A stretch of 15,869 nucleotides of DNA from Candidatus Anstonellales archaeon (GCA_038740615.1 JAVYLQ010000011.1:1-15869); one strand, 5' to 3'. Shown: positions 84-15,869, counted from the stretch's first letter. Numbers and translations: made by a program. The notes: a model not told the origin generated them from the letters alone.

Positions 84-150
84 TAGCTCAGCCCGGAAGA
101 GCACTCGGCTGAAGACCGAGGGGTCGGGGGTTCAAATCCCCCCTGCGGCA
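84..150 (+). pseudogene. 5'-truncated tRNA-Phe(GAA) (tRNA positions 8-73); probable att-site remnant
   Basis: TA-GCTC(86-89)/GAGC D arm, anticodon arm CTCGG-CT GAA GA-CCGAG (GAA at 111-113), T arm GGGGG-TTCAAAT-CCCCC, 3' acceptor strand CTGCGGC plus discriminator A150. The 7 nt upstream (GATTATA, 77-83) cannot pair with CTGCGGC (GCCGCRG expected). Confidence 0.85.
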
Positions 151-181: not shown

Positions 182-1126
182 ATGAACAGATTAGATTATC
201 AGAATGAATCCAAGCAGAATCCACCTAGAAAACTAGAGAGTTTCAAAGAGAGAGTAGAGAGATATATGAGTCCAATTAGAAAATTGGCTAAGACTACTGC
301 TGTGGTTATGGCTTTAGGTACACTATCATTAAATCTGTCATCTTGCAATCTGCTTAATGATCTAATATATGAGAGATATTACTGCTCAAGATTCTTTGCT
401 GACGAGATACAAATTAACTCAATAGATATAAATAGGTACCCTTCTAGAGAAGGGTATAACACTGTTAAAGTATACCCAGAAGTCAAAAGACACATATTTA
501 TCAAGAAAGATGCTAATGGGAATTGGAGTTATAAAGTGGAATCTCCTCTATTTATTCAATACTCATACTCCCCCCCAGAAGAGCCATATTTTTATATATG
601 CGGTAGGAACATAGATATGACCTATAAATTTGAGTTGAATTTGGATCAGAATGTAAAGAACACTCTTGATAGAATTCTTACCAATCCTGATCAATATGTT
701 GGTAAGAAAGTAACTGATTTGAGTCTTCTGAACAATCTGTACTTGAATTTGTACTATACTATAACAGTTTATGGAAATATAGGTGAGCAGAAGATGGTGG
801 GGCCTGAGAATGCAAGAGTCTCTTCACATACCTTCAATAACATATTTAGTACTCCTTTGAACATAATAGAGGAAAATTTAAGGTTGTCGAGTAATTATAG
901 CATTATTCCTACTACTATTAAACTTAAGGTTCGAGCAATTGTTGAAGAGGTGTATATAGATAGAGTTCAGGATAATGAGATTGTGATAGGATTGCGAAAT
1001 ACTAAGAATTGGGAGGAATTAAAGAGAATCACGGGACAACCATACGATAAATACTTCTATAGGGTAGCTCCTATGTCTATAGACCCTCTATTAGTGGAAT
1101 ACCTATACGGTCTTACAGAGTATTAA
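182..1126 (+). CDS. Hypothetical secreted/membrane-anchored protein, putative lipoprotein
   Basis: 314-aa ORF. Basic stretch then hydrophobic segment ending in lipobox-like LSSC (RKLAKTTAVVMALGTLSLNLSSC). TTTTAAA box about 25 nt before the ATG. No recognisable family. Confidence 0.7.
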   Translation: MNRLDYQNESKQNPPRKLESFKERVERYMSPIRKLAKTTAVVMALGTLSLNLSSCNLLNDLIYERYYCSRFFADEIQINSIDINRYPSREGYNTVKVYPEVKRHIFIKKDANGNWSYKVESPLFIQYSYSPPEEPYFYICGRNIDMTYKFELNLDQNVKNTLDRILTNPDQYVGKKVTDLSLLNNLYLNLYYTITVYGNIGEQKMVGPENARVSSHTFNNIFSTPLNIIEENLRLSSNYSIIPTTIKLKVRAIVEEVYIDRVQDNEIVIGLRNTKNWEELKRITGQPYDKYFYRVAPMSIDPLLVEYLYGLTEY

Positions 1127-3921: not shown

Positions 3922-4356
3922 ATGATCGAGGAGCTACTAGGGGTAAGTTTATACAACCAGAGAGCTGAGATTGTTAACATGGAACAGTATGCAAAATCCA
4001 CCGATCTATTGATATTTGTATATCCTAATAATAGAAACCCTGAATTCTTGGGCATGCTAGAGATATTAAATAGATATGCGAGGGATAAGATAGCTATTAA
4101 TACAGATAGTGTTGATGAGAACCTCAATGTAGCAGCTCAGCTAAAAATCGAATTTGATATCCTTTCAGATCCCTCCAGAATAGTTATACGTAGATTAGGG
4201 GCTATAGCTATTACAAGAGTTGGGGGTGAGGATAGAGAAGTATTTATACCTACTGCATACGTATTCATAGATGGAAGATTAGAGAAGAAGGCTAGTGTTT
4301 ACAAACAGGATGAATTCATGGAGTTTCTGAATAGTATAGAAGATCTCCTGAAATAG
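3922..4356 (+). CDS. Peroxiredoxin/BCP-like thioredoxin-fold protein lacking cysteine
   Basis: LIFVYP....P, AINTDS, FDILSDPSRIVIRRLG and PTAYVFIDG resemble the BCP/AhpC-TSA motifs LYFYP..FTPxC, GISxD, FPLLSD....VAKAYG and RxTFVID. The protein contains no Cys. Confidence 0.7.
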   Translation: MIEELLGVSLYNQRAEIVNMEQYAKSTDLLIFVYPNNRNPEFLGMLEILNRYARDKIAINTDSVDENLNVAAQLKIEFDILSDPSRIVIRRLGAIAITRVGGEDREVFIPTAYVFIDGRLEKKASVYKQDEFMEFLNSIEDLLK

Positions 4357-4864
4357 AAACTCTAGCCGATACTCTCAACCCGTCCAATTCTAGATCTACT
4401 AACCACTGATCGTTATCAAAGACCAATTCTTTTTTCAGTATCTGATGATCTCTTAGATGGGGTTTTTTTATTCCCAGATTGTAAATAACCTCTTCAGGAT
4501 ATATCAATCTACAGTTATTGTCGTTTTTGCTACAATCGGCTAGAGTTATGATATATGGGTCTATCTCCGCAAATTTATAATCTGGATATATGTAATCTAC
4601 ATGATATCTCTTAGGATAGAAACTAGTGTCATTGAATATAAGTGCAAAACTAACCTTAATATTATCATTGGATTCAATAGTGCTTAGCAATTCAATTCTG
4701 CTAGCATCGCTGTACTTATCCTGGAGATAGCTATATATTGTGTTTATGTATTTCTCCAGTTCAACATAATTCTTAGCATAGTACTGATTGTATTCATATA
4801 TCATTCTAATGGATAGGATCGTCATAATCATCAATATTATTAGAATTAGATCGATAGATTTCAT
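4316..4864 (-). CDS. Hypothetical N-terminally membrane-anchored protein
   Basis: 182-aa ORF with N-terminal hydrophobic helix (LILIILMIMTILSI), a C-x6-C pair, and ATGA coupling to the upstream gene. Confidence 0.7.
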   Translation of the reverse strand: MKSIDLILIILMIMTILSIRMIYEYNQYYAKNYVELEKYINTIYSYLQDKYSDASRIELLSTIESNDNIKVSFALIFNDTSFYPKRYHVDYIYPDYKFAEIDPYIITLADCSKNDNNCRLIYPEEVIYNLGIKKPHLRDHQILKKELVFDNDQWLVDLELDGLRVSARVSISGDLLYYSETP

Positions 4865-5181
4865 GATATTAGTGTACCCTCAGGAATATCTCTATCGACA
4901 GTAATTAGAGATAATACTCTCCCATCATATGCTGCTAATAACATCCCATTACTCTGATATCCAGCTATTGTTTTTGGTTCTAGATTTTTTATAATGATTA
5001 TCTTCTTACCTATCAGCTCCTCTGGTTTATAGTATTGTTTTATACCAGAAACGATATATCTCTGTTCATCACCTAGAGACAATTTTATTCTATATAGTTT
5101 GTCTCTCTCGGGTATGTTCTCAACTTCAAGTATCTTTGCCACAACCAATTCTACCTTTTTAAAATCGTCTAAATTTATCAT
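4861..5181 (-). CDS. tRNA-binding OB-fold protein (Trbp111 / stand-alone MetRS C-terminal domain)
   Basis: DDFKKVELVVAKILEVE, DKLY, IVSGIKQYYKPEELIGKKIIIIKNLEP, SNGMLLAA. Confidence 0.92.
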   Translation of the reverse strand: MINLDDFKKVELVVAKILEVENIPERDKLYRIKLSLGDEQRYIVSGIKQYYKPEELIGKKIIIIKNLEPKTIAGYQSNGMLLAAYDGRVLSLITVDRDIPEGTLIS

Positions 5182-6095
5182 GTGTTTGTATAGGATTTTA
5201 GATTTTTAATTCTTTCTCTTAACTTAGATTTTATAAAGCTCTTCAGCTGCTCAGGCGCATATATATGAACATACACATCTCCATTTCTACTCTGTTCTAT
5301 ATAGTTAAATACTATGTTTATGATTTCCCTATAATATCTCCTACTAATTGGATCTAGATATGTAATTGGATGACTAATTGGGTATATTATCTTCTGTACA
5401 GGTCTGAAGGCCATCATATTCATACCAACATAGAATCCAATACTAACTGATGCTTGATCAGCACCTAGAAATCCTCCTAATATAGCAATATATACCAATG
5501 CAGATCCAAATAAACTGATCAGATTTCCAATTACCCTATTCTTTTCCACGTTAGCAACAACTCTTATATATCGTCCTTTTTCTTTTTTTTCTCTGGCTTT
5601 CAGACGTTCTCTCCTTGTATCATGTTCAATATCTATTTTATCCAACAACATTGAGTATTTATCTGCAATACAATCCAGTATGTGTATTATAGGTTCATTA
5701 GGCCTAATTCTAATTATATAGGGTTTAGATACATTTTCCTGTTTTATTCCATATTCTTGTATTATATATTTATCAGTTTTATCAGTTACATCAGATCTCT
5801 CGATCCATTTATTTCTATTAGGTTCTCTATCTTTAAGAAGATCATATGTTGCTTCTGTATAGTGTGCAGCACTCTTGTATCTTAGAAAATAATCTAGATC
5901 TACATGATCAACAAAAAATATCAATCTGCTCTTTTTCAATCCATGATCTCTTGATCTGTTTATAAGATATGTATTCTCTCTTAACTTCTCATAGTCATAA
6001 ATATACAGTATAATATATCTTCTTCTAACCTCATCATACATCATAGTTTCAATCATTCTAGAGTTCGAATAACTTTTTTCTAATCTGTAAACCAT
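5178..6095 (-). CDS. Hypothetical membrane protein (about 2 TM segments)
   Basis: 305-aa ORF with hydrophobic segments LISLFGSALVYIAILGGFLG and ASVSIGFYVGMNMMAF. TTTAAA box about 25 nt upstream; ATGA overlap with the next gene. Confidence 0.7.
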   Translation of the reverse strand: MVYRLEKSYSNSRMIETMMYDEVRRRYIILYIYDYEKLRENTYLINRSRDHGLKKSRLIFFVDHVDLDYFLRYKSAAHYTEATYDLLKDREPNRNKWIERSDVTDKTDKYIIQEYGIKQENVSKPYIIRIRPNEPIIHILDCIADKYSMLLDKIDIEHDTRRERLKAREKKEKGRYIRVVANVEKNRVIGNLISLFGSALVYIAILGGFLGADQASVSIGFYVGMNMMAFRPVQKIIYPISHPITYLDPISRRYYREIINIVFNYIEQSRNGDVYVHIYAPEQLKSFIKSKLRERIKNLKSYTNT

Positions 6096-6124: not shown

Positions 6125-6505
6125 TTATAACTGAATTGCATTTATCATTCCATCCTGATTCGGTCTGGATGTTACTCTGGCCTTTCCGTAACCTTTAACC
6201 TCTATTATAGTACCTTTGGTTATTATGTTCGATCTGGTTTCATTAGGAGTATTAGATTCTAAAACCTTAACAATCTCTGTTCTAACAACCTTCCCATCCT
6301 TAGTAGCCAAATTCACATAGAATGCTTTCTTGAGTTTGACTTTAGTCCCCCCACCTTTAGTTCTGACTATCTTTCTCTCTTCTTTTGTATCTAATTTGGT
6401 AAGTATCCTATCTCTACCAAAGTGGGCCTTAATTTTATCTCTGTTCTTTACTTTCTTAGCACCGGTTCCAGAATACACAGTTCCAGATCTTCTTTCATGA
6501 TACAT
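6125..6505 (-). CDS. rps8e: 30S ribosomal protein S8e
   Basis: TGAK, GR....T, VRTKGGGTKVKL, RSNIITKGTIIEV..GKARVTSRPNQDGMINA. Confidence 0.96.
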   Translation of the reverse strand: MYHERRSGTVYSGTGAKKVKNRDKIKAHFGRDRILTKLDTKEERKIVRTKGGGTKVKLKKAFYVNLATKDGKVVRTEIVKVLESNTPNETRSNIITKGTIIEVKGYGKARVTSRPNQDGMINAIQL

Positions 6506-7580
6506 GGTTTTTTAAATGCGGCTTAATATTTAAATATTTATTTCTAATCAGATATGCATCAATCCTTTTTAATTCTGGATAACTCTGTTCTATGAGATTT
6601 GATATACTTTGCTTCATTTTACTATCGACTAATATCATCAGTGATTCTCTCCCAGCCCCATGCAATCTCTGTGCTATTATCCCTTTTTCCCTAGAGAGTT
6701 CTTTCGTGATCATCGTTATCTCTTCTGGTTCATATTCCTGCTCTAAATCCATATGTTTCCATATTCTTATTAATCTATCTCTGATCATTTCAGTGATCTT
6801 ACCAACTTCATCCCATTTACCCTTCATGAACGCATCTATCCCTCTGTCCTCTAGCTTAAAATATTCTCTAGCCAGATCCTTGATGTCTCCTCTTTTATAG
6901 ACTCTCTTGAACTCTCTAACAGCTATATTCGTATCCAAGCTATAACCGGTATCGTATACTAACATATCGATATCGTTTGGTATTTTCACTGGTACTATTT
7001 CTATCCTCAGAGATTTGTTGATAGTTTTCAGATCTAAATCTATATTTTGAGATTTTTGGTATATTATTGATGAATTATAGGTGGCTGTGGCAAAATCAAA
7101 TCCTACAGGGGTTTTACCAGCTAATCTATAGGCGATCAGAGCTAATCTGAATACCAGATCTGGATCAGGTTTCAACCCATTCCCCTCTAATACAGCTTTG
7201 ATCGTGCTAACCATACTAGCACTTGAGGAACCTAGACCTGTTTTACTATCAGGAGTCCCAAAGATTGGAGATGATATCAGCTCTATTTCCAGAGGATTAA
7301 CATATTTCCTCTTGGATTTAAGGTATTTTATGGCGACTGCCATTGCTACTGATGCTAGATTTTTAGATCTGATGTCTGGAGATTCATAAAGATCGTATAG
7401 TTTGCTTATAATCCTATTCTCATTAGAAATCGTATAGCTCGCCCCTATTCCCATGTTTTTCCTATCTACTACTGCAGCAACCAGAGCTCTTGATTGTAAG
7501 TATTTGCCATTTACCAGTATTTTATTCATCAACAGATTATACCCACCAAATATCAGCACCTTACCAGCAGAGTTTATCAT
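6495..7580 (-). CDS. GHMP kinase, ERG8-type phosphomevalonate kinase-like (divergent)
   Basis: SAGKVLIFGGYNLL, KTGLGSSSA ATP-binding loop, GFDFATATY, and C-terminal HGAG loop, matching the ERG8/MvaK2 motif order. Confidence 0.75.
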   Translation of the reverse strand: MINSAGKVLIFGGYNLLMNKILVNGKYLQSRALVAAVVDRKNMGIGASYTISNENRIISKLYDLYESPDIRSKNLASVAMAVAIKYLKSKRKYVNPLEIELISSPIFGTPDSKTGLGSSSASMVSTIKAVLEGNGLKPDPDLVFRLALIAYRLAGKTPVGFDFATATYNSSIIYQKSQNIDLDLKTINKSLRIEIVPVKIPNDIDMLVYDTGYSLDTNIAVREFKRVYKRGDIKDLAREYFKLEDRGIDAFMKGKWDEVGKITEMIRDRLIRIWKHMDLEQEYEPEEITMITKELSREKGIIAQRLHGAGRESLMILVDSKMKQSISNLIEQSYPELKRIDAYLIRNKYLNIKPHLKNHVS

Positions 7581-7629: not shown

Positions 7630-8472
7630 CTAATTTAATTTAAGCCTATTTATTCTATTTGAATATGATTGTAGTAAGTTGTCAGATGGGTCTCTTAGCT
7701 CTAGATACTCCGATATTCTACTTATCAGTTCTCTGACTAAATTATCACCGGCCACTATTCCCTGTATTCTCACGAGATCACTTGCTAAATAGGATTCTAA
7801 TAAGTCTCTGAAATCCTTACTCAAACCTATTTGCTCAGAGGCATTCTGAAGTGCTATTATGATAAAAATTGATCTTAATATATTTTTAGTATCATCTATG
7901 TTTTTAAATCTATTAACTTTCTCGTTCAGATTTGGAATTTGAATACGTATATTGGACGCAAAGTCTAATATTTTTATGTCCCAAAATCCATGACGAGCGA
8001 TCTGATCCCATAGGAACAATGCACCAATATCAGAGGACTCTGTGAATATCTTGAACAAATTATTTCTTTTCACAGTGACCAGAAAAGGGAACTTGGAAGT
8101 ATCATTCAGATATAATATTGTATGATCATATTGACTTAACAACTTGGTGAATCTCTCCATTGTCCACGTATATATGGGTAGGATCATTGTATTTGGTAGA
8201 GTACTGATACTATATTTTTCATTACCAATTCTACTCAATCTATTACTATGAGCAATCTCATTCACTTCTCTTTGATTTCTAGTTCTAAACTTTGCATTAT
8301 TAGATAATACAAAGAAAACATTATCAGATTCTGGGATTATGTAATTCGGATCTGTGAAAATGAAACCACTCAAACTCTTCAGAACCTTCTGTTCATTTAC
8401 ATACACCTCCAATAATTCTTCTCTATTAGTAGTGATTAATTTTATATATCCCGCTCCAGACTCCAATTTCAT
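7630..8472 (-). CDS. Hypothetical protein; degenerate paralog of the adjacent metallopeptidase (no HExxH)
   Basis: The N-terminal half aligns by eye with 8469..9362 (NYIIPESDNVFFVLSNNAKF vs KLVHPVPNGFFFLTDYLKI; IGNEKYSI vs IKGERWTI; WTMERFTKLL vs WQLKKVIEIL). LWDQIARHGFWDI occupies the HExxH position. ATGA coupled. Confidence 0.6.
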   Translation of the reverse strand: MKLESGAGYIKLITTNREELLEVYVNEQKVLKSLSGFIFTDPNYIIPESDNVFFVLSNNAKFRTRNQREVNEIAHSNRLSRIGNEKYSISTLPNTMILPIYTWTMERFTKLLSQYDHTILYLNDTSKFPFLVTVKRNNLFKIFTESSDIGALFLWDQIARHGFWDIKILDFASNIRIQIPNLNEKVNRFKNIDDTKNILRSIFIIIALQNASEQIGLSKDFRDLLESYLASDLVRIQGIVAGDNLVRELISRISEYLELRDPSDNLLQSYSNRINRLKLN

Positions 8473-9362
8473 GGGAATCCCCCTGGATTGGCTAAATATC
8501 TTTTAACATAATATTCTATCTGGCTTGCAAACTCTATATTATATTCCTTACCTATAGCTTTTATTAAATCTCTTATTGGAGGGTGATGTACTGAAAAATT
8601 TATTAGAGTAGGTATAATCAGTTCGGAGAAAAAATAACCAGGGTAGCCTCTTCTATCATTCTTAATCAGATCATCGGCCGCTCTGATTAATGTATATAAA
8701 GATGCAAACAGTTCCTCCGGCCCATCCCATGGATGACCTGATTGAAAATCAGTTTCCATGAAAAAATATCCTTCCCTTAACATATTAAATATATCCCTAG
8801 AATTATTATGTGATGCGATATAATTATAGGTATTTTTTAAAGTATGTTCTAAATTTTGAGTATTCAGTACATGCGCTAATTCATGATGTGTCTGTAGGAT
8901 TAAACTCATAGGTGCATTTGGGAAGGATCGGAGCCATATCATAATGAGAGGAAGATAGTTTGAATGATATTCAACTGCCAATCCCACGTGATCAGAATCA
9001 ATGTAAATATTTAAATTGGATCTGATTCTATTAGTTGTGTATAGAATTTCAATCACCTTTTTTAACTGCCACTCTTCAACATTTTCCCCAGCAACTATCG
9101 TCCAACGTTCTCCTTTTATAATTTTCTTTGTTAGGTTTTTGGTATCATATTCATAAGTAACGCCGTTATGTACAATCTTTAAATAGTCGGTAAGGAAGAA
9201 AAATCCATTAGGCACGGGATGTACTAATTTTGATTCAATCGCCAAATCTTTCTTAGATCCATATCTCACCAATACTATATCTCCATAATGTTTGAATACA
9301 ACATTCCTATCAGTTTCATCCATCCTTACTCTAATCCCTCCAACATTAACCTTGACTTCCAT
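8469..9362 (-). CDS. Putative gluzincin zinc metallopeptidase
   Basis: HELAH (8871-8885) followed about 50 aa later by GHPWDGPEELFASLY. Confidence 0.8.
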   Translation of the reverse strand: MEVKVNVGGIRVRMDETDRNVVFKHYGDIVLVRYGSKKDLAIESKLVHPVPNGFFFLTDYLKIVHNGVTYEYDTKNLTKKIIKGERWTIVAGENVEEWQLKKVIEILYTTNRIRSNLNIYIDSDHVGLAVEYHSNYLPLIMIWLRSFPNAPMSLILQTHHELAHVLNTQNLEHTLKNTYNYIASHNNSRDIFNMLREGYFFMETDFQSGHPWDGPEELFASLYTLIRAADDLIKNDRRGYPGYFFSELIIPTLINFSVHHPPIRDLIKAIGKEYNIEFASQIEYYVKRYLANPGGFP

Positions 9363-9394
9363 ATATTTATTCTTTAAAAAATATTTAAAAATGT

Positions 9395-9997
9395 TTAAAC
9401 CACAACATTTGCGATCAAATATCTAATACCCAACCATTTCTTATTCTTGATCCTTTTCAAATCCTCCACCAATCCACCCATTCCGTACAATTCCCAAATT
9501 CCAATCATCAATCTTTCGAATTCCCAATTGAAAACATCATTTAATAATGCCATATTCCTTAGAAACTTCTTACGAATTTTGGTATCTGAAGTAGCTAGAT
9601 CCGAAATAGTAAAAAATGAGCAGAATAACTCCTCACAACTACTCCATGGATGCCCCAGATATCGATGATTAATATAGTACTCTTCTGTTAGTAATCTGAA
9701 TGCAGATTTTCTCGAATCTATTCTCTCGTACATATCACGGAATGCTCCTCTGAGACTTCTATCACCTATCCTTATCTTACCATCAATATCCCACAAGATA
9801 TGAGCGAATTCATGATTCTGAATCAGTCTCAATAATCTATCATCTGGAGCTCGGATTGTAACTATATATATTTCCTCCTCTTGAGATATTCTGATTACGC
9901 TACCACTTGGGAAGGTGTCTCTAGCAATATCTACAACTACCCTGTATCCTACTTTATTATTCAATCTCCTGTTCACATATTCTATTGCCCTTACCAT
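9395..9997 (-). CDS. Putative gluzincin zinc metallopeptidase
   Basis: HEFAH (9800-9814) followed by GHPWSSCEELFCSFF. Start set at ATG 9997 because GGTGA (10003-10007) lies 5 nt upstream. Confidence 0.8.
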   Translation of the reverse strand: MVRAIEYVNRRLNNKVGYRVVVDIARDTFPSGSVIRISQEEEIYIVTIRAPDDRLLRLIQNHEFAHILWDIDGKIRIGDRSLRGAFRDMYERIDSRKSAFRLLTEEYYINHRYLGHPWSSCEELFCSFFTISDLATSDTKIRKKFLRNMALLNDVFNWEFERLMIGIWELYGMGGLVEDLKRIKNKKWLGIRYLIANVVV

Positions 9998-10934
9998 ATC
10001 TATCACCAATATAATCTATAAAATCTAGTATTTTGGGGAAGTCAATAGCGTTGGTCTTGATCTTGATTAGATCATGAATTCTTCTAAACTCCTCTGCTAC
10101 CATAACGTTTGAGAATATCGACGCAGCCAACTCGATCTCTCCTTCATGCGGATGATCTTCTATCCCTGTGTAATATCTACTTGAAAATCTATTTACATCA
10201 ATTCTATGATATATTCTCCCCATATCTCTTACTGATGTCTGTAGATAGGGATCTCTAGGATATATTATATGGAACAGTTCATGAAACACAATGCTCATAA
10301 GTTGAAGATATGTTATTCTATCAAAATTCTCTATAACTATTCCTGGAGGTATCTTGAATTCAGATAAGAGTTCTTCAGAGAAACCATATGCATTTCTCAC
10401 TCTAAAAGGACTTCTCAGAAAGAGAATTCTAAAAGGAACAGTTCTCTTCATGATTCGAGTTAGCCGATTCTCCAACTCTTCATCTCGTATTGATCTATAT
10501 GAATTGATATCTTTTCTGTAATCCAAACTATATATAATTCCATTATCTTCATACTTAGAGCTAATAACGTAAATAGCTGCTCTACTAGCTATAAAAGTTC
10601 GAATATCACTAACCTTCCTATCGATAGCACGTATGGGATTAGGATTTATTCCATATAAATCTAGATAAATCTCCAATTCTGTATTTGCAATTTTATCAAT
10701 TAATTTCAAGTATCTTTTGGATCTATACTTACTTAGTATTTCTCTAATAATTATATCTGATGCTAGTGAATAGTAGTTATAGTACAGAAAAGGTATATAT
10801 ACTTTTGGTGGAATATCTAGAATATCGCTAGCTATTTTTAGCTCCCGATTTGATTTCCAGAACTCGTCTATCCTATTCTGAGATATAATTCGTTTAGGAT
10901 GAATAGGTAGATTTAGCTGAACTCTATAATTCAT
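9957..10934 (-). CDS. Putative gluzincin zinc metallopeptidase with N-terminal extension
   Basis: HELFH (10269-10283) followed by DHPHEGEIELAASIF. ATG 10934 (overlapping the upstream stop) preferred over TTG 10964. Confidence 0.78.
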   Translation of the reverse strand: MNYRVQLNLPIHPKRIISQNRIDEFWKSNRELKIASDILDIPPKVYIPFLYYNYYSLASDIIIREILSKYRSKRYLKLIDKIANTELEIYLDLYGINPNPIRAIDRKVSDIRTFIASRAAIYVISSKYEDNGIIYSLDYRKDINSYRSIRDEELENRLTRIMKRTVPFRILFLRSPFRVRNAYGFSEELLSEFKIPPGIVIENFDRITYLQLMSIVFHELFHIIYPRDPYLQTSVRDMGRIYHRIDVNRFSSRYYTGIEDHPHEGEIELAASIFSNVMVAEEFRRIHDLIKIKTNAIDFPKILDFIDYIGDRYGKGNRICEQEIE

Positions 10935-11496
10935 CGCAATTAAATATATAGCAGAATGTTTCAACTCTGTGTTTAAGCCTCAGCTCTAGTAAAATTCTGT
11001 AATAATCTATGTGTCTGTTATCATATTTATCAAGAATGTACTTTAAGCTATAAATTATTCGAATAGATATGTTTGAATCTGGAATTATCCAAGGTAGTGA
11101 TAAGACAGATAATAGACTTGATCGCATATCGATATCCTCAATATCTAGATAGTATTTAAGACTCATCAATTTTCTTTCCTTATCATTTAACTTATGAATT
11201 TCTATATCTTTGTAGTCTCTAAAAGCTATCCTAAGAATAGCTCCTATCAGCTGTTCTTTAGAATTATATTTATCGAATACAATAGCTGTTCTAGGATTCT
11301 CACATATATATTCATCTCTTTGAGGTTCATCAGTTTTAGCTATTATTATCTTCTGGAGTAGACCCATCTGTAGAATTCTATCTACATAAGAATCTCTGTA
11401 AGGTTTGAATTCATTTTGGGTTAGATATATAACACTGTTCTGATCAAGAAGTTTTCTAATATCATCTATTCCCAAACTATGTATCTGTAGAGTCAT
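10924..11496 (-). CDS. Hypothetical protein; probable degenerate paralog of the metallopeptidases
   Basis: LMSLKYYLDIED-IDMRSSLLSVL resembles RFSSRYYTGIEDHPHEGEIELAASIFSNV of the neighbour; QLIGAILRIAF lies where the neighbour has QLMSIVFHELF. TTTAAAAA box about 25 nt upstream. Confidence 0.6.
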   Translation of the reverse strand: MTLQIHSLGIDDIRKLLDQNSVIYLTQNEFKPYRDSYVDRILQMGLLQKIIIAKTDEPQRDEYICENPRTAIVFDKYNSKEQLIGAILRIAFRDYKDIEIHKLNDKERKLMSLKYYLDIEDIDMRSSLLSVLSLPWIIPDSNISIRIIYSLKYILDKYDNRHIDYYRILLELRLKHRVETFCYIFNCDEL

Positions 11497-11526
11497 ATTA
11501 CTTATGTAAGAAATTGTTTTTAAATG

Positions 11527-11564
11527 GAATACTCCGGTCTTTTCAGATAGGTGGGTAGTGCAGC
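11527..11564 (-). repeat. 3' arm of the 16S pre-rRNA processing stem
   Basis: GAATACTCCGGT (11527-11538), GATAG and GTGGGTAGTGCA (11551-11562) are reverse complements of segments at 13099-13136. Confidence 0.9.
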
Positions 11565-11581
11565 TCCTTCAACAACCATTT

Positions 11582-13071
<1,490 letters not shown>

Positions 13072-13509: not shown

Positions 13510-14331
13510 ATGACTCAATTTTCCATATCAAATTCTCTAAATCCTCAAAATATTGATTTGAAAGAGGAGCTGGGTAAATTGGGATTTAATGATAAGGAGA
13601 TTGATATATTGCTATCTAGGAAGACTATGAAATATAAGTTTCTATCTGATAGTGAATTTCTGGATGTAGTAAAATCTACTCTGGACTATATTGATCCAAA
13701 GAATAATCTGTCTGGATTTTTAAAATTACTAGATATAAATGCAAATAAGTTCCTTAGAAACAAATTCTCAACTATGAATCAGCAGAGTGAAATATATGTT
13801 GTTAATAGTATGTTGGGATTTGGAATTGAATATTCTGATGCAAAAAGAATTCTAAAGTTATATAAATCTCAAGTCCGACTAGCTACCCCATATGATTTTG
13901 TGGATGTAGCTAGAAAAATATATCGTCCAAATATGGATATTGATATTTTTATAAATAAGCTGTTTAGAGCTTTAGGTGAAATAAGATTTGTTAAGGATGA
14001 ATTTACCAGAAAAGGGATAGTCTTCAAATATCAGATCCCACCTTATGTGATAGATCAGGAAGATTTTGATATTGGTGTTGATATAGCTGTTGGTAAGATC
14101 ATTATTGATAATAAGGAGCTCTATAGGGAGATAAGAGAAATGGTATTAGATAGAGCTAGAGATGTTGATCTAAAAGATTTATATGCGGTAATGATAGATG
14201 ATAGGTTTGTAGAGTCATATTCAAAAGTAAAAGAAGTTCTTGATTATGGGGTTGAGGTAGTAGATCTGATAGCGTCTATCCTATATGTAGCTGCTGGAGG
14301 TAGATTCAGATCAGTCAAGAACATATCTTAA
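13510..14331 (+). CDS. Hypothetical protein (probably helical, cytoplasmic)
   Basis: 273-aa ORF with codon usage like its neighbours; no motif recognised. Confidence 0.7.
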   Translation: MTQFSISNSLNPQNIDLKEELGKLGFNDKEIDILLSRKTMKYKFLSDSEFLDVVKSTLDYIDPKNNLSGFLKLLDINANKFLRNKFSTMNQQSEIYVVNSMLGFGIEYSDAKRILKLYKSQVRLATPYDFVDVARKIYRPNMDIDIFINKLFRALGEIRFVKDEFTRKGIVFKYQIPPYVIDQEDFDIGVDIAVGKIIIDNKELYREIREMVLDRARDVDLKDLYAVMIDDRFVESYSKVKEVLDYGVEVVDLIASILYVAAGGRFRSVKNIS

Positions 14332-14434: not shown

Positions 14435-15869
14435 TTAAATGCGTTCAGTTCTATCTTTTAATACTATCCAGAATCCTTGTACAGATACATCCTCAGTAGG
14501 AATGTTGATAATGATCTGTCCATTTTCATCAGATCTGTATGTTTGATCAAATATTCTTACACTCACATTTCTAACAGGTCTATTAGTTATACTCCTAAAT
14601 GTAATGATTGTTCTATCATTTAGCATCATCACCCTCATTTTCAGTACTCTTAGATAAGCTAATAATGATAGTAGGAATAGTGTAAATAGGAGTGGTAGTT
14701 GTTGAGGTAGAATTATATTAAGAATCTGGTACATTAAGTTTCCTCTAATTCTCTCATCTTCTGTAGTAGTTGTTGTTAATTCAGGTTGGTCCTCTTGTTC
14801 TATCTGATGTGCAGGTTCAGGTTCTCTAACCTCCTCAACAATCCTGGGTTGAATATCTGTAGAATCTAATACAATTTCTTTCTGTTCTAACTGTTCTGAA
14901 ATATCTCTTATATCTAAGATTTCTCTTTGCTCTTCTTGATCAGATGTACTTATAGAACTTGATCTGGCTGAAGCTGAATCTCTACTATCTTGCTGATACT
15001 CCTCTTGTAGTATGGGTTGTTGTTCCTGTTGATCCTCTGGAGGAATCTGTTCTTCTCCGCCTGATCTTCTTATAGAGAATAGAATAGTTTCAGATACATT
15101 ATTGATCCCATCAGTGCAACTGATAATTAGTTCATATGATCCTCTACTGAACTCTAGATTTATAGAGTATGTTGATCCATTCTGTAGCTGCACTGTGTTA
15201 TTATACGTATTTTGCCCTGTGAATAGATATGAACATGTTAACACCTGGGCAAAATCATCCTCCACATAGAACTCAAATGTTCGAATACCCTCAGTATAAC
15301 TCTCACCTGGTCTTGGCCAGGAGATGTTCAAAGTAGGTGGAATCAGATCTATCCACACATTATAAGGTCCATAAGTAATAGTAACACTATCTCCATTTAC
15401 AGTATAGGTAACATTGAACTGTATAGTGTAATTACCTGATGCAGGATAGGTATAATTCAGAGTTATCACTGATGATCCATTACCCTGAATCTGATCAACC
15501 ACATTTCCATTAACTATCAACTCCATAACCCAATTAACACTCTCATTAACACTGATGTTAACCCCATAACTATTATTAGAACTATTACTAATAGGATTAA
15601 TATCTAATGTTATTGATGATCCTCCTGATCCTGAAGAACCATCATCCCCAGGCACTCCATAAACCACAAATGTAACATTATCACTATCAGAATTATTCAT
15701 CAAATCATAAACAACCACTCTAACACTATACACACCTGGACCCAGATTCTGGAACAGATAACTGTAGGTTCCATTAGTGATACCACTTAAAGTATTATTC
15801 AACATCAAACCACCATTCAGATACACCTCATATCTACTTATCACCATATCATCCCAGAGATTGAAACTC
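14435..15869 (-). CDS. Large cell-surface protein (Ig-like beta domains, acidic linker, TM helix, short C-terminal domain); 5' end outside the window
   Basis: The frame is open to the window edge (SFNLWDDMVISRY...). N/S/T/V/Y-rich beta-strand domains (GVYSVRVVVYD, GNYTIQFNVTY, DLIPPTLNISWP, GSYELIISCTDG), many N-x-S/T sequons, E/Q/D-rich linker, TM LPLLFTLFLLSLLAYL. Confidence 0.85.
   Translation of the reverse strand, partial: SFNLWDDMVISRYEVYLNGGLMLNNTLSGITNGTYSYLFQNLGPGVYSVRVVVYDLMNNSDSDNVTFVVYGVPGDDGSSGSGGSSITLDINPISNSSNNSYGVNISVNESVNWVMELIVNGNVVDQIQGNGSSVITLNYTYPASGNYTIQFNVTYTVNGDSVTITYGPYNVWIDLIPPTLNISWPRPGESYTEGIRTFEFYVEDDFAQVLTCSYLFTGQNTYNNTVQLQNGSTYSINLEFSRGSYELIISCTDGINNVSETILFSIRRSGGEEQIPPEDQQEQQPILQEEYQQDSRDSASARSSSISTSDQEEQREILDIRDISEQLEQKEIVLDSTDIQPRIVEEVREPEPAHQIEQEDQPELTTTTTEDERIRGNLMYQILNIILPQQLPLLFTLFLLSLLAYLRVLKMRVMMLNDRTIITFRSITNRPVRNVSVRIFDQTYRSDENGQIIINIPTEDVSVQGFWIVLKDRTERI

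Follow-up and report, generated by a model that had tools for sequence, protein, structure and literature searches.

A tandem gene array of a probable, unnamed gluzincin family in a very small archaeon

What do five adjacent genes encode when none of them finds a match in Pfam or NCBIfam scans? The question is raised by nucleotides 7630-11496 of contig C11 (15,869 nucleotides; hereafter the window), which belongs to an archaeal genome of 542 kb (83% complete). The closest named proteins, orthologues of the second-last product of the array with 77-91% identity, carry the name Candidatus Anstonellales archaeon. The interval is filled by five open reading frames (ORFs) on the minus strand, P0005 to P0001, which are arranged head to tail and overlap or nearly touch their neighbours (Table 1). 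A first-pass annotation took them for a five-gene array of one gluzincin family, expanded in this lineage and perhaps forming a dedicated effector or defence system. The locus is best described as carrying a new, unnamed gluzincin family, one copy of which is a pseudo-enzyme and which has undergone tandem expansion in a single genus of very small archaea. We consider it rather probable that three of the genes are intact and one is a degenerate paralogue of this family, which would be of the type of anthrax lethal factor (LF) and MtfA, and that P0005 is an unrelated orphan.

The motifs on which the annotation was founded, HExxH and HP-x5-EL[FA][AC]S, are indeed present in three consecutive genes. 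In P0002, P0003 and P0004 the common motifs follow each other in the order HExxH, E-x-x-Y and G/D-H-P-x5-E-L-[FA]-[AC]-S; the Glu of the last motif sits 7 residues after the HP His in all three, and the distance from the first His of HExxH to the HP His is 50, 54 and 43 residues, respectively. P0003 consists of the catalytic domain only and is the minimal family member. P0002 has an N-terminal extension of about 140 residues before the zincin core (HELAH at residues 160-164, then REGYFF, then GHPWDGPEELFAS at 209-221), and P0004, the most divergent intact member, has one of about 200 residues. In the middle motif of P0004 Ser replaces Glu, and Asp replaces the Gly of GHP.

The sharing of these motifs is due to homology and not to chance, as the blastp and profile scores indicate. 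P0002 matches P0003 with E 7e-8, and P0003 matches P0004 with E 0.03. Against the family profile, among the 1662 ORFs of the genome, the E values are 3.1e-22 for P0003, 2.7e-20 for P0002 and 2.9e-13 for P0004; hhalign gives P0004 a probability of 97% with this profile, in which P0004 itself is included. The three ordered motifs and a significant profile score are thus combined in each of the three proteins, and their mutual homology, as proposed at first pass, is borne out. No hydrophobic N-terminal segment was detected in P0002, P0003 or P0004 by a simple Kyte-Doolittle heuristic of our own, in agreement with the earlier statement that they carry no signal peptide, and from their sequences they are most likely cytoplasmic peptidases.

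The genome holds two further intact copies, one of 196 residues on contig C26 and one of 298-303 residues with an N-terminal membrane anchor on contig C18, so that the family totals five, three of them on C11. A 336-residue ORF on another contig of the same genome (C12, 11291-12298, plus strand) aligns weakly (E 0.043) with the portion of the family profile that spans its N-terminus and HExxH, and may be another kind of zincin.

How large is the family? A core alignment of 25 sequences (A3) was searched against 1.84 billion representatives of clusters at 50% identity, and its profile matched 825 clusters at E ≤ 1e-3 and 264 at E ≤ 1e-10. Both motifs, HExxH and then [H]-P-x5-E-[LM]-F-A-S, stand 40-150 residues apart in 142 of the 149 representatives listed, and the residue at position -7 from the ligand Glu is His in 140 of these 142, Gln in one and Lys in one. 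Across 141 aligned sequences H62, E63, H66, E123 and S127 (P0003 numbering) never vary, and E105, Y108, G115, H116, P117 and A126 are conserved in at least 90%.

A match to a characterised family with a known housekeeping role had been named at first pass as grounds for refutation, and no family match was reached in the Pfam or NCBIfam scans. The Pfam cut-off was reached by none of the 25 core sequences, a Pfam peptidase-family cut-off by none of the 83 representatives scanned out of the 149 (one of which has HEAT repeats), and an NCBIfam cut-off by none of 71 sequences. The family is therefore large, unnamed and unmodelled by either library. Many of its members have N-terminal segments resembling a lipobox, a twin-arginine signal or a membrane anchor; by our heuristic, 43 of the 149 listed members have a strongly hydrophobic N-terminal segment.

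One sister genome (G260) has seven copies in three tandem arrays on contigs C46, C28 and C16 (loci L008, L031, L027 and L022), some with twin-arginine-like or membrane-anchor-like N-termini and two with Gln or Lys at -7. The 3162-residue protein P0119 carries the family domain in its middle, at residues 1955-2070, and no Pfam domain was found anywhere in it at E ≤ 0.01. P0119 is named Candidatus Omnitrophota, and among ten family proteins looked up it is the one for which a taxon name was obtained.

The array does not, therefore, consist of five clear family members, because P0001 and P0005 have neither HExxH nor pairwise similarity to the other three by blastp. The claim of a five-gene array of one family holds for the five tandem minus-strand ORFs and the three intact members, with P0001 as a degenerate one, and fails for P0005. 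For P0005, hhalign gives a probability of 0.2% and its profile score is reached by 401 of 2000 shuffles; it is an orphan with no detectable relation to the family.

P0001 is a more difficult case. It may be no family member at all, its motif matches being coincidental in an AT-rich genome prone to low complexity, which would reduce the array to three related genes. Such a reading draws on an hhalign probability of 7.3%, on a profile E value of 1.8 (rank eighth among the 1662 ORFs), on the missing BLAST similarity and on an AlphaFold2 model that stays poor even with the family alignment (predicted local distance difference test, pLDDT, 50; predicted template modelling score, pTM, 0.34). But hhalign (P 0.0048) places three segments of P0001 on the family motifs in the right order, NEIAH, FTES and FWD....FAS (RHGFWDIKILDFAS), and MAFFT independently gives the same matches. 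The profile score of 5.0 bits was reached by none of 2000 composition-preserving shuffles, and the gene directly follows and overlaps that of the intact member P0002. We accordingly regard a chance resemblance as somewhat unlikely, and P0001 as probably a degenerate paralogue and pseudo-peptidase. Its first zinc-binding His is replaced by Asn, and the ligand Glu by Leu (position 169) or, in the sister genome G290, by Ser; P0001 is therefore probably without metal binding and, having lost two of three metal ligands, is predicted to be catalytically dead.

What kind of enzyme would the intact copies be? The AlphaFold2 model of P0003, made with the 141-sequence alignment, has pLDDT 82 and pTM 0.80, with pLDDT 87-96 through residues 51-150. 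In the model a helix and three strands are followed by the HEFAH helix (53-72), short helices around E-x-x-Y, and a helix (121-137) that begins at Glu123; this predicted order is the zincin layout. The HExxH motif, invariant in 141 of 141 sequences, thus stands on a helix as in gluzincins, and the invariant Glu of E-L-F-A opens the helix 121-137, which supplies the sequence part of a putative third metal ligand.

Relation to known zincins was sought by structure and by profile. With the P0003 model Foldseek returned nothing significant, the best match being LF (E 0.04). Scores of structural neighbours all lie below the noise bar of the tool (about 8), and the helical half draws scores of 4-5 from globins, so that the fold evidence agrees with the relation without deciding it. 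In a profile search of PDB sequences the HExxH-ELFAS region aligned onto the LF core (HEFGH-EFFAEAF) with E 0.25. A relaxed hhalign comparison with an MtfA alignment (shallow, at least 71% identity) gave P 0.0026 over 125 columns, with ELFA on ECFA and the GHP His opposite the MtfA Tyr. The nearest neighbours in sequence and structure are, weakly, LF, MtfA and the PPEPs, each with a weak score.

The same residue distinguishes the family from these neighbours. Counted on the sequences, LF and MtfA have a Tyr exactly 7 residues before the ligand Glu, where this family has His, as the first-pass annotation correctly noted. A Tyr at -7 is catalytically important, the backing used here being the PPEP entry titles Y178F and Y189F, and among gluzincins stabilisation of the transition state can fall to a His, thermolysin being an example. 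For the metal site itself, zinc ligands H686, H690 and E735 and the base E687 are given for LF in PMC5668564, and PMC13482132 classes MtfA as a gluzincin by HEXXH and EXXA, with zinc on H148, H152 and E211.

A mechanism may be proposed along these lines. Both His of HExxH, together with the invariant Glu of the E-L-F-A-S helix, would hold one zinc ion, whose bound water would be activated by the HExxH Glu as general base. At -7, the near-invariant His would stabilise the tetrahedral intermediate in place of the Tyr of LF, the PPEPs and MtfA, and may act together with the near-invariant Glu-x-x-Tyr upstream. The catalytic domain of about 190 residues stands at the C-terminus, and the variable N-terminal parts probably select the substrate. 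The copies in the window would act on peptides or in protein processing, most likely in the cytoplasm, and P0001, if catalytically dead, may serve as a partner or regulator. The copies would have arisen in one genus of very small Micrarchaeota/Anstonellales archaea, in a variable spot between the 16S rRNA and GHMP kinase genes.

Several observations weigh against this reading. All links to known families are weak in statistical terms. With default settings hhalign aligns only HExxH with MtfA (18-29 columns), at a probability of 11-50%. The family sequences scanned reach no cut-off of a Pfam peptidase family and no NCBIfam model, and a search of the whole genome with PF06167, which did recover the E. 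coli control, returned 0 matches. The placement in the cytoplasm is based on a simple home-made hydrophobicity heuristic, and the membership of P0001 has to contend with the low hhalign probability and the poor model already mentioned. The clade behind the genus-specific expansion, described below, has long branches and is not strongly supported.

Other searches point the same way. PF07737 matched neither the window proteins nor the 25 core sequences at E ≤ 1, nor the 83 representatives at E ≤ 0.01, and PF06167 matched none of these three sets. An Atlas look-up led to clusters partly annotated with PF06167, PF07737 or PF15890 at a cosine of 0.90, which a tenth of shuffled proteins also reach, and these are taken as leads only. 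The first-pass assignment to ATLF/MtfA/PPEP-like peptidases with a Tyr-to-His change is still the best available reading, its lines of evidence being concordant, although each of them is weak and the M34 and M90 profiles remain unmatched.

Two alternatives change the function. In the first, the zincin fold is retained for binding, and the proteins are stoichiometric regulators, in the manner of MtfA titrating Mlc, whose N-terminal parts choose the partners. This is improbable, because the metal ligands and the catalytic base are invariant in 141 sequences, as expected for an enzyme, because many relatives are exported to places where titration of a repressor makes no sense, and because no regulator gene is conserved beside the family members. 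In the second, the proteins are HExxH metalloenzymes that do not act on the peptide bonds of proteins, and are instead, for example, cell-envelope amidases or ChlB-like oxygenases. The many lipoproteins and membrane-anchored members would be placed at the envelope, and among the weak Foldseek matches are SjiH-Ni (22ob, E 0.36) and the HExxH oxygenase domain of ChlB (8s5f, E 0.81), but LF and MtfA score better and cover more of the model. The E-x-x-A motif of the third ligand is, moreover, a signature of gluzincin peptidases (PMC13482132), and we think this second alternative very unlikely.

The history of the array was read from its distribution. In a sample of the phylum of the window 15 of 401 genomes match, the window's own included, and all 15 belong to one order. 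The family is present in each of the five other genomes of the genus. The copy numbers in the six genomes, each of about 0.5 Mb, are 5, 7, 2, 3, 5 and 2, as counted with a profile built partly from sequences of these same genomes. More distant members occur in records titled Micrarchaeota, and beyond the archaea 8 of 301 genomes match in the phylum of a Nomurabacteria record. Other searches recovered less: a word-index search with P0002 alone found three close orthologues only, one with a 71-sequence alignment (A5) found 2 proteins, and a search for the pattern GHPYDNxxEL, taken from a 12-sequence alignment, led to 11 stretches of which 5 were confirmed, which is not a census. The family is not specific to DPANN archaea, and includes bacteria of the candidate phyla radiation and Omnitrophota.

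At the locus itself, all five genes recur in the genome G290, with their order unchanged and with the 16S rRNA and kinase genes again on either side, and G176 has only a P0004-like and a P0003-like gene there. It follows that the spot is variable. P0001 and P0005 are each present only in the window's genome (G000) and in G290, that is, in 2 of the 151 genomes of the order searched. A maximum-likelihood tree built from 40 core sequences unites P0002, P0003, P0004, the C26 copy and the orthologues of these in G290 and G176 (support 93/85, with long branches), and the membrane-anchored type of C18 forms a separate clade over four genomes (100/99). The first of these clades, at genus level, fits an origin of the window copies by duplication inside one genus. 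The lineage-specific expansion proposed at first pass is accordingly supported for the window copies, whereas the family itself extends beyond DPANN.

All five array genes, P0001 included, are under purifying selection (dN/dS, the ratio of nonsynonymous to synonymous substitution rates, in Table 1). No recurrent partner gene was found at 17 distant family loci, where SfLAP occurs twice and DnaJ twice, both DnaJ in one genome.

The most far-reaching interpretation would make the family a new one of MEROPS rank, with His for the catalytic Tyr of the LF/MtfA lineage, preferentially kept and multiplied in ultra-small symbionts (Micrarchaeota, bacteria of the candidate phyla radiation, Omnitrophota); in this genus the signal-less tandem set and the dead P0001 form one module; P0001 would gate or target the enzymes, and the module would process host-derived proteins or peptides or act on the host. 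We regard this as an unlikely proposal. The possible coupling of P0001 to P0002 in translation, suggested by the 4-base overlap of the start of the former with the stop of the latter, concerns the same pair of genes.

A dedicated system, its paralogues serving as host-directed effectors or anti-viral defence proteins and P0001 and P0005 as accessory or immunity components, could appeal to the share of the family in the genome (about 1% of genes, estimated from 5-7 copies per obligate-symbiont-type genome of about 0.5 Mb, gene numbers uncounted), to the varying content of the locus (with two genes in G176 but five in each of G000 and G290), to the evolution of P0001, P0002 and P0005, which is faster than that of neighbour genes, and to the toxins among the nearest characterised relatives. 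It is nevertheless highly improbable, and the first-pass suggestion to this effect is not supported, because the neighbours are housekeeping genes, the three window proteins have no export signal by the same heuristic, the window scans found no secretion, mobile-element or defence gene (PADLOC and PHROGs not being among the libraries scanned), the 17 distant loci share no conserved partner, and P0001 and P0005 are too restricted within the order to be general components.

The boundaries of the array and the positions of its motifs are listed in Table 1. The likely starts of P0003 and P0004 are the ATG codons and not the upstream TTG codons, because database relatives (P0015 and P0034) begin at the ATG positions. 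The element TTTAAAAA before P0005, read with the archaeal promoter consensus, may be a putative promoter of the array's own, giving a leaderless transcript, in a region that is AT-rich.

Table 1. Positions in the window of the array genes, their motifs and flanking features; dN/dS values are single pairwise estimates from G000 against G290
Feature	Position	Strand	Length	dN/dS	Remark
P0005	10924-11496	-	190 aa	0.38	orphan gene, head of array
P0004	9957-10934	-	325 aa	0.13	from ATG 10934; ORF open back to TTG 10964
P0003	9395-9997	-	200 aa	0.16	from ATG 9997; ORF open back to TTG 10009
P0002	8469-9362	-	297 aa	0.40	intact family member
P0001	7630-8472	-	280 aa	0.33	probable degenerate paralogue and pseudo-peptidase
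P0004 HELFH	10269-10283	-			sequence check
P0004 DHPHEGEIELAAS	10119-10157	-			sequence check
P0003 HEFAH	9800-9814	-			sequence check
P0003 GHPWSSCEELFCS	9617-9655	-			sequence check
P0002 HELAH	8871-8885	-			sequence check
P0002 GHPWDGPEELFAS	8700-8738	-			sequence check
P0001 NEIAH	8248-8262	-			in place of HExxH
P0001 FKIFTESSD	8029-8055	-			in place of F-x-x-F-D-E-S-x-Y
P0001 RHGFWDIKILDFAS	7954-7995	-			in place of GHP-x5-ELFAS
TTTAAAAA, TATA-box-like element	11517-11524	-			centred about 25 bases before the P0005 ATG
16S rRNA gene	11582-13071	-			1451 bits; 85 bases upstream of P0005; upstream boundary of array
GHMP-family kinase gene (phosphomevalonate-kinase-like)	6495-7580	-		0.09	downstream boundary of array; syntenic in G290 and G176; housekeeping neighbour
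Ribosomal protein S8e gene	6125-6505			0.02	beyond the GHMP kinase gene; housekeeping neighbour
16S-adjacent arrangement, window	11497-13071	-			
16S-adjacent arrangement, locus L037	1-1415				
16S-adjacent arrangement, locus L021	2564-3345				

The rest of the window is of housekeeping type, with genes for eRF1/Pelota-like, metallo-beta-lactamase-fold, class I tRNA synthetase, peroxiredoxin-like and tRNA-binding proteins, S8e and tRNA-Lys. Protein-coding genes, and not tRNA or 23S rRNA genes, come next after the 16S rRNA gene on its strand in three genomes of the genus (G290 and G176 besides that of the window), with a gap of only 55-85 bases. The GHMP kinase has its best match in the archaeal phosphomevalonate kinase model (66.6 bits, against a cut-off of 500), and may be a divergent kinase of the mevalonate pathway. 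Five further sizeable ORFs have no Pfam match: 182-1126 (+), 5178-6095 (-), 4316-4864 (-), 13510-14331 (+) and 14435-15847 (-). At 84-142 (+) an Rfam search matched part of a tRNA, with 43.9 bits over model positions 8-63, where ARAGORN made no call; it may be a truncated, split or intron-bearing tRNA. The sequencing runs listed for the stretch are all on record as DNA (17 of 17), and 16 are labelled as hot-spring metagenomes.

What the locus represents, most likely, is an ordinary enzyme family in need of a name and a substrate, and not a new kind of system. With at least 825 clusters, invariants of catalytic type and no Pfam or NCBIfam model, it accounts for a sizeable share of metallopeptidase diversity that lacks annotation. 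The family also offers a natural exchange of Tyr for His at a residue treated as catalytic in work on LF, the PPEPs and MtfA, which is testable in the 200-residue P0003. In only about 0.5 Mb of DNA, the keeping of five to seven copies and a dead one suggests that proteolysis matters for a dependent lifestyle. A survey of archaeal proteomes published in 2026 (PMC13607799) describes an unclassified HEXXH domain of zincin-like type whose third ligand, an acidic residue, comes from a second subunit, so that the site is complete in the homodimer alone.

The family may finally be set beside the known zincins. The minigluzincins (proabylysin and projannalysin) are, like P0003, archaeal minimal gluzincin catalytic domains, and proabylysin (4jiu) gave a weak PDB profile match with E 0.23; however, the match covers the HExxH helix only (36 profile positions), and the minigluzincins are shorter (chain length about 105 residues) and without the GHP-x5-ELFAS motif. 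With IrrE/PprI/ImmA and CapP (M78-like) only 92-110 residues of the N-terminal half align and the region of the distal ligand differs; the best PF06114 match has E 0.11, in one of the 25 core members.

Having no M34 or M90 profile match and no Tyr at -7, the family is on these two counts outside both of these MEROPS families; it probably still works like their peptidases. MtfA/YeeI (M90, PF06167) has Tyr at -7, whereas this family has His there and is without an Mlc-type partner and the N-terminal helical domain of MtfA. LF, PPEP-1 and Zmp1 (M34, ATLF PF07737) likewise differ by Tyr at -7, seen in the LF sequence and in the Y178F of PPEP-1 titles, and by toxin delivery domains, which are absent here. 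In comparison with M34, the spacing from HExxH to Glu is longer and more variable in this family (47-157 residues, from 40-150 plus 7), and the family has in addition a G-H-P turn and a conserved D-E-S-x-Y motif.

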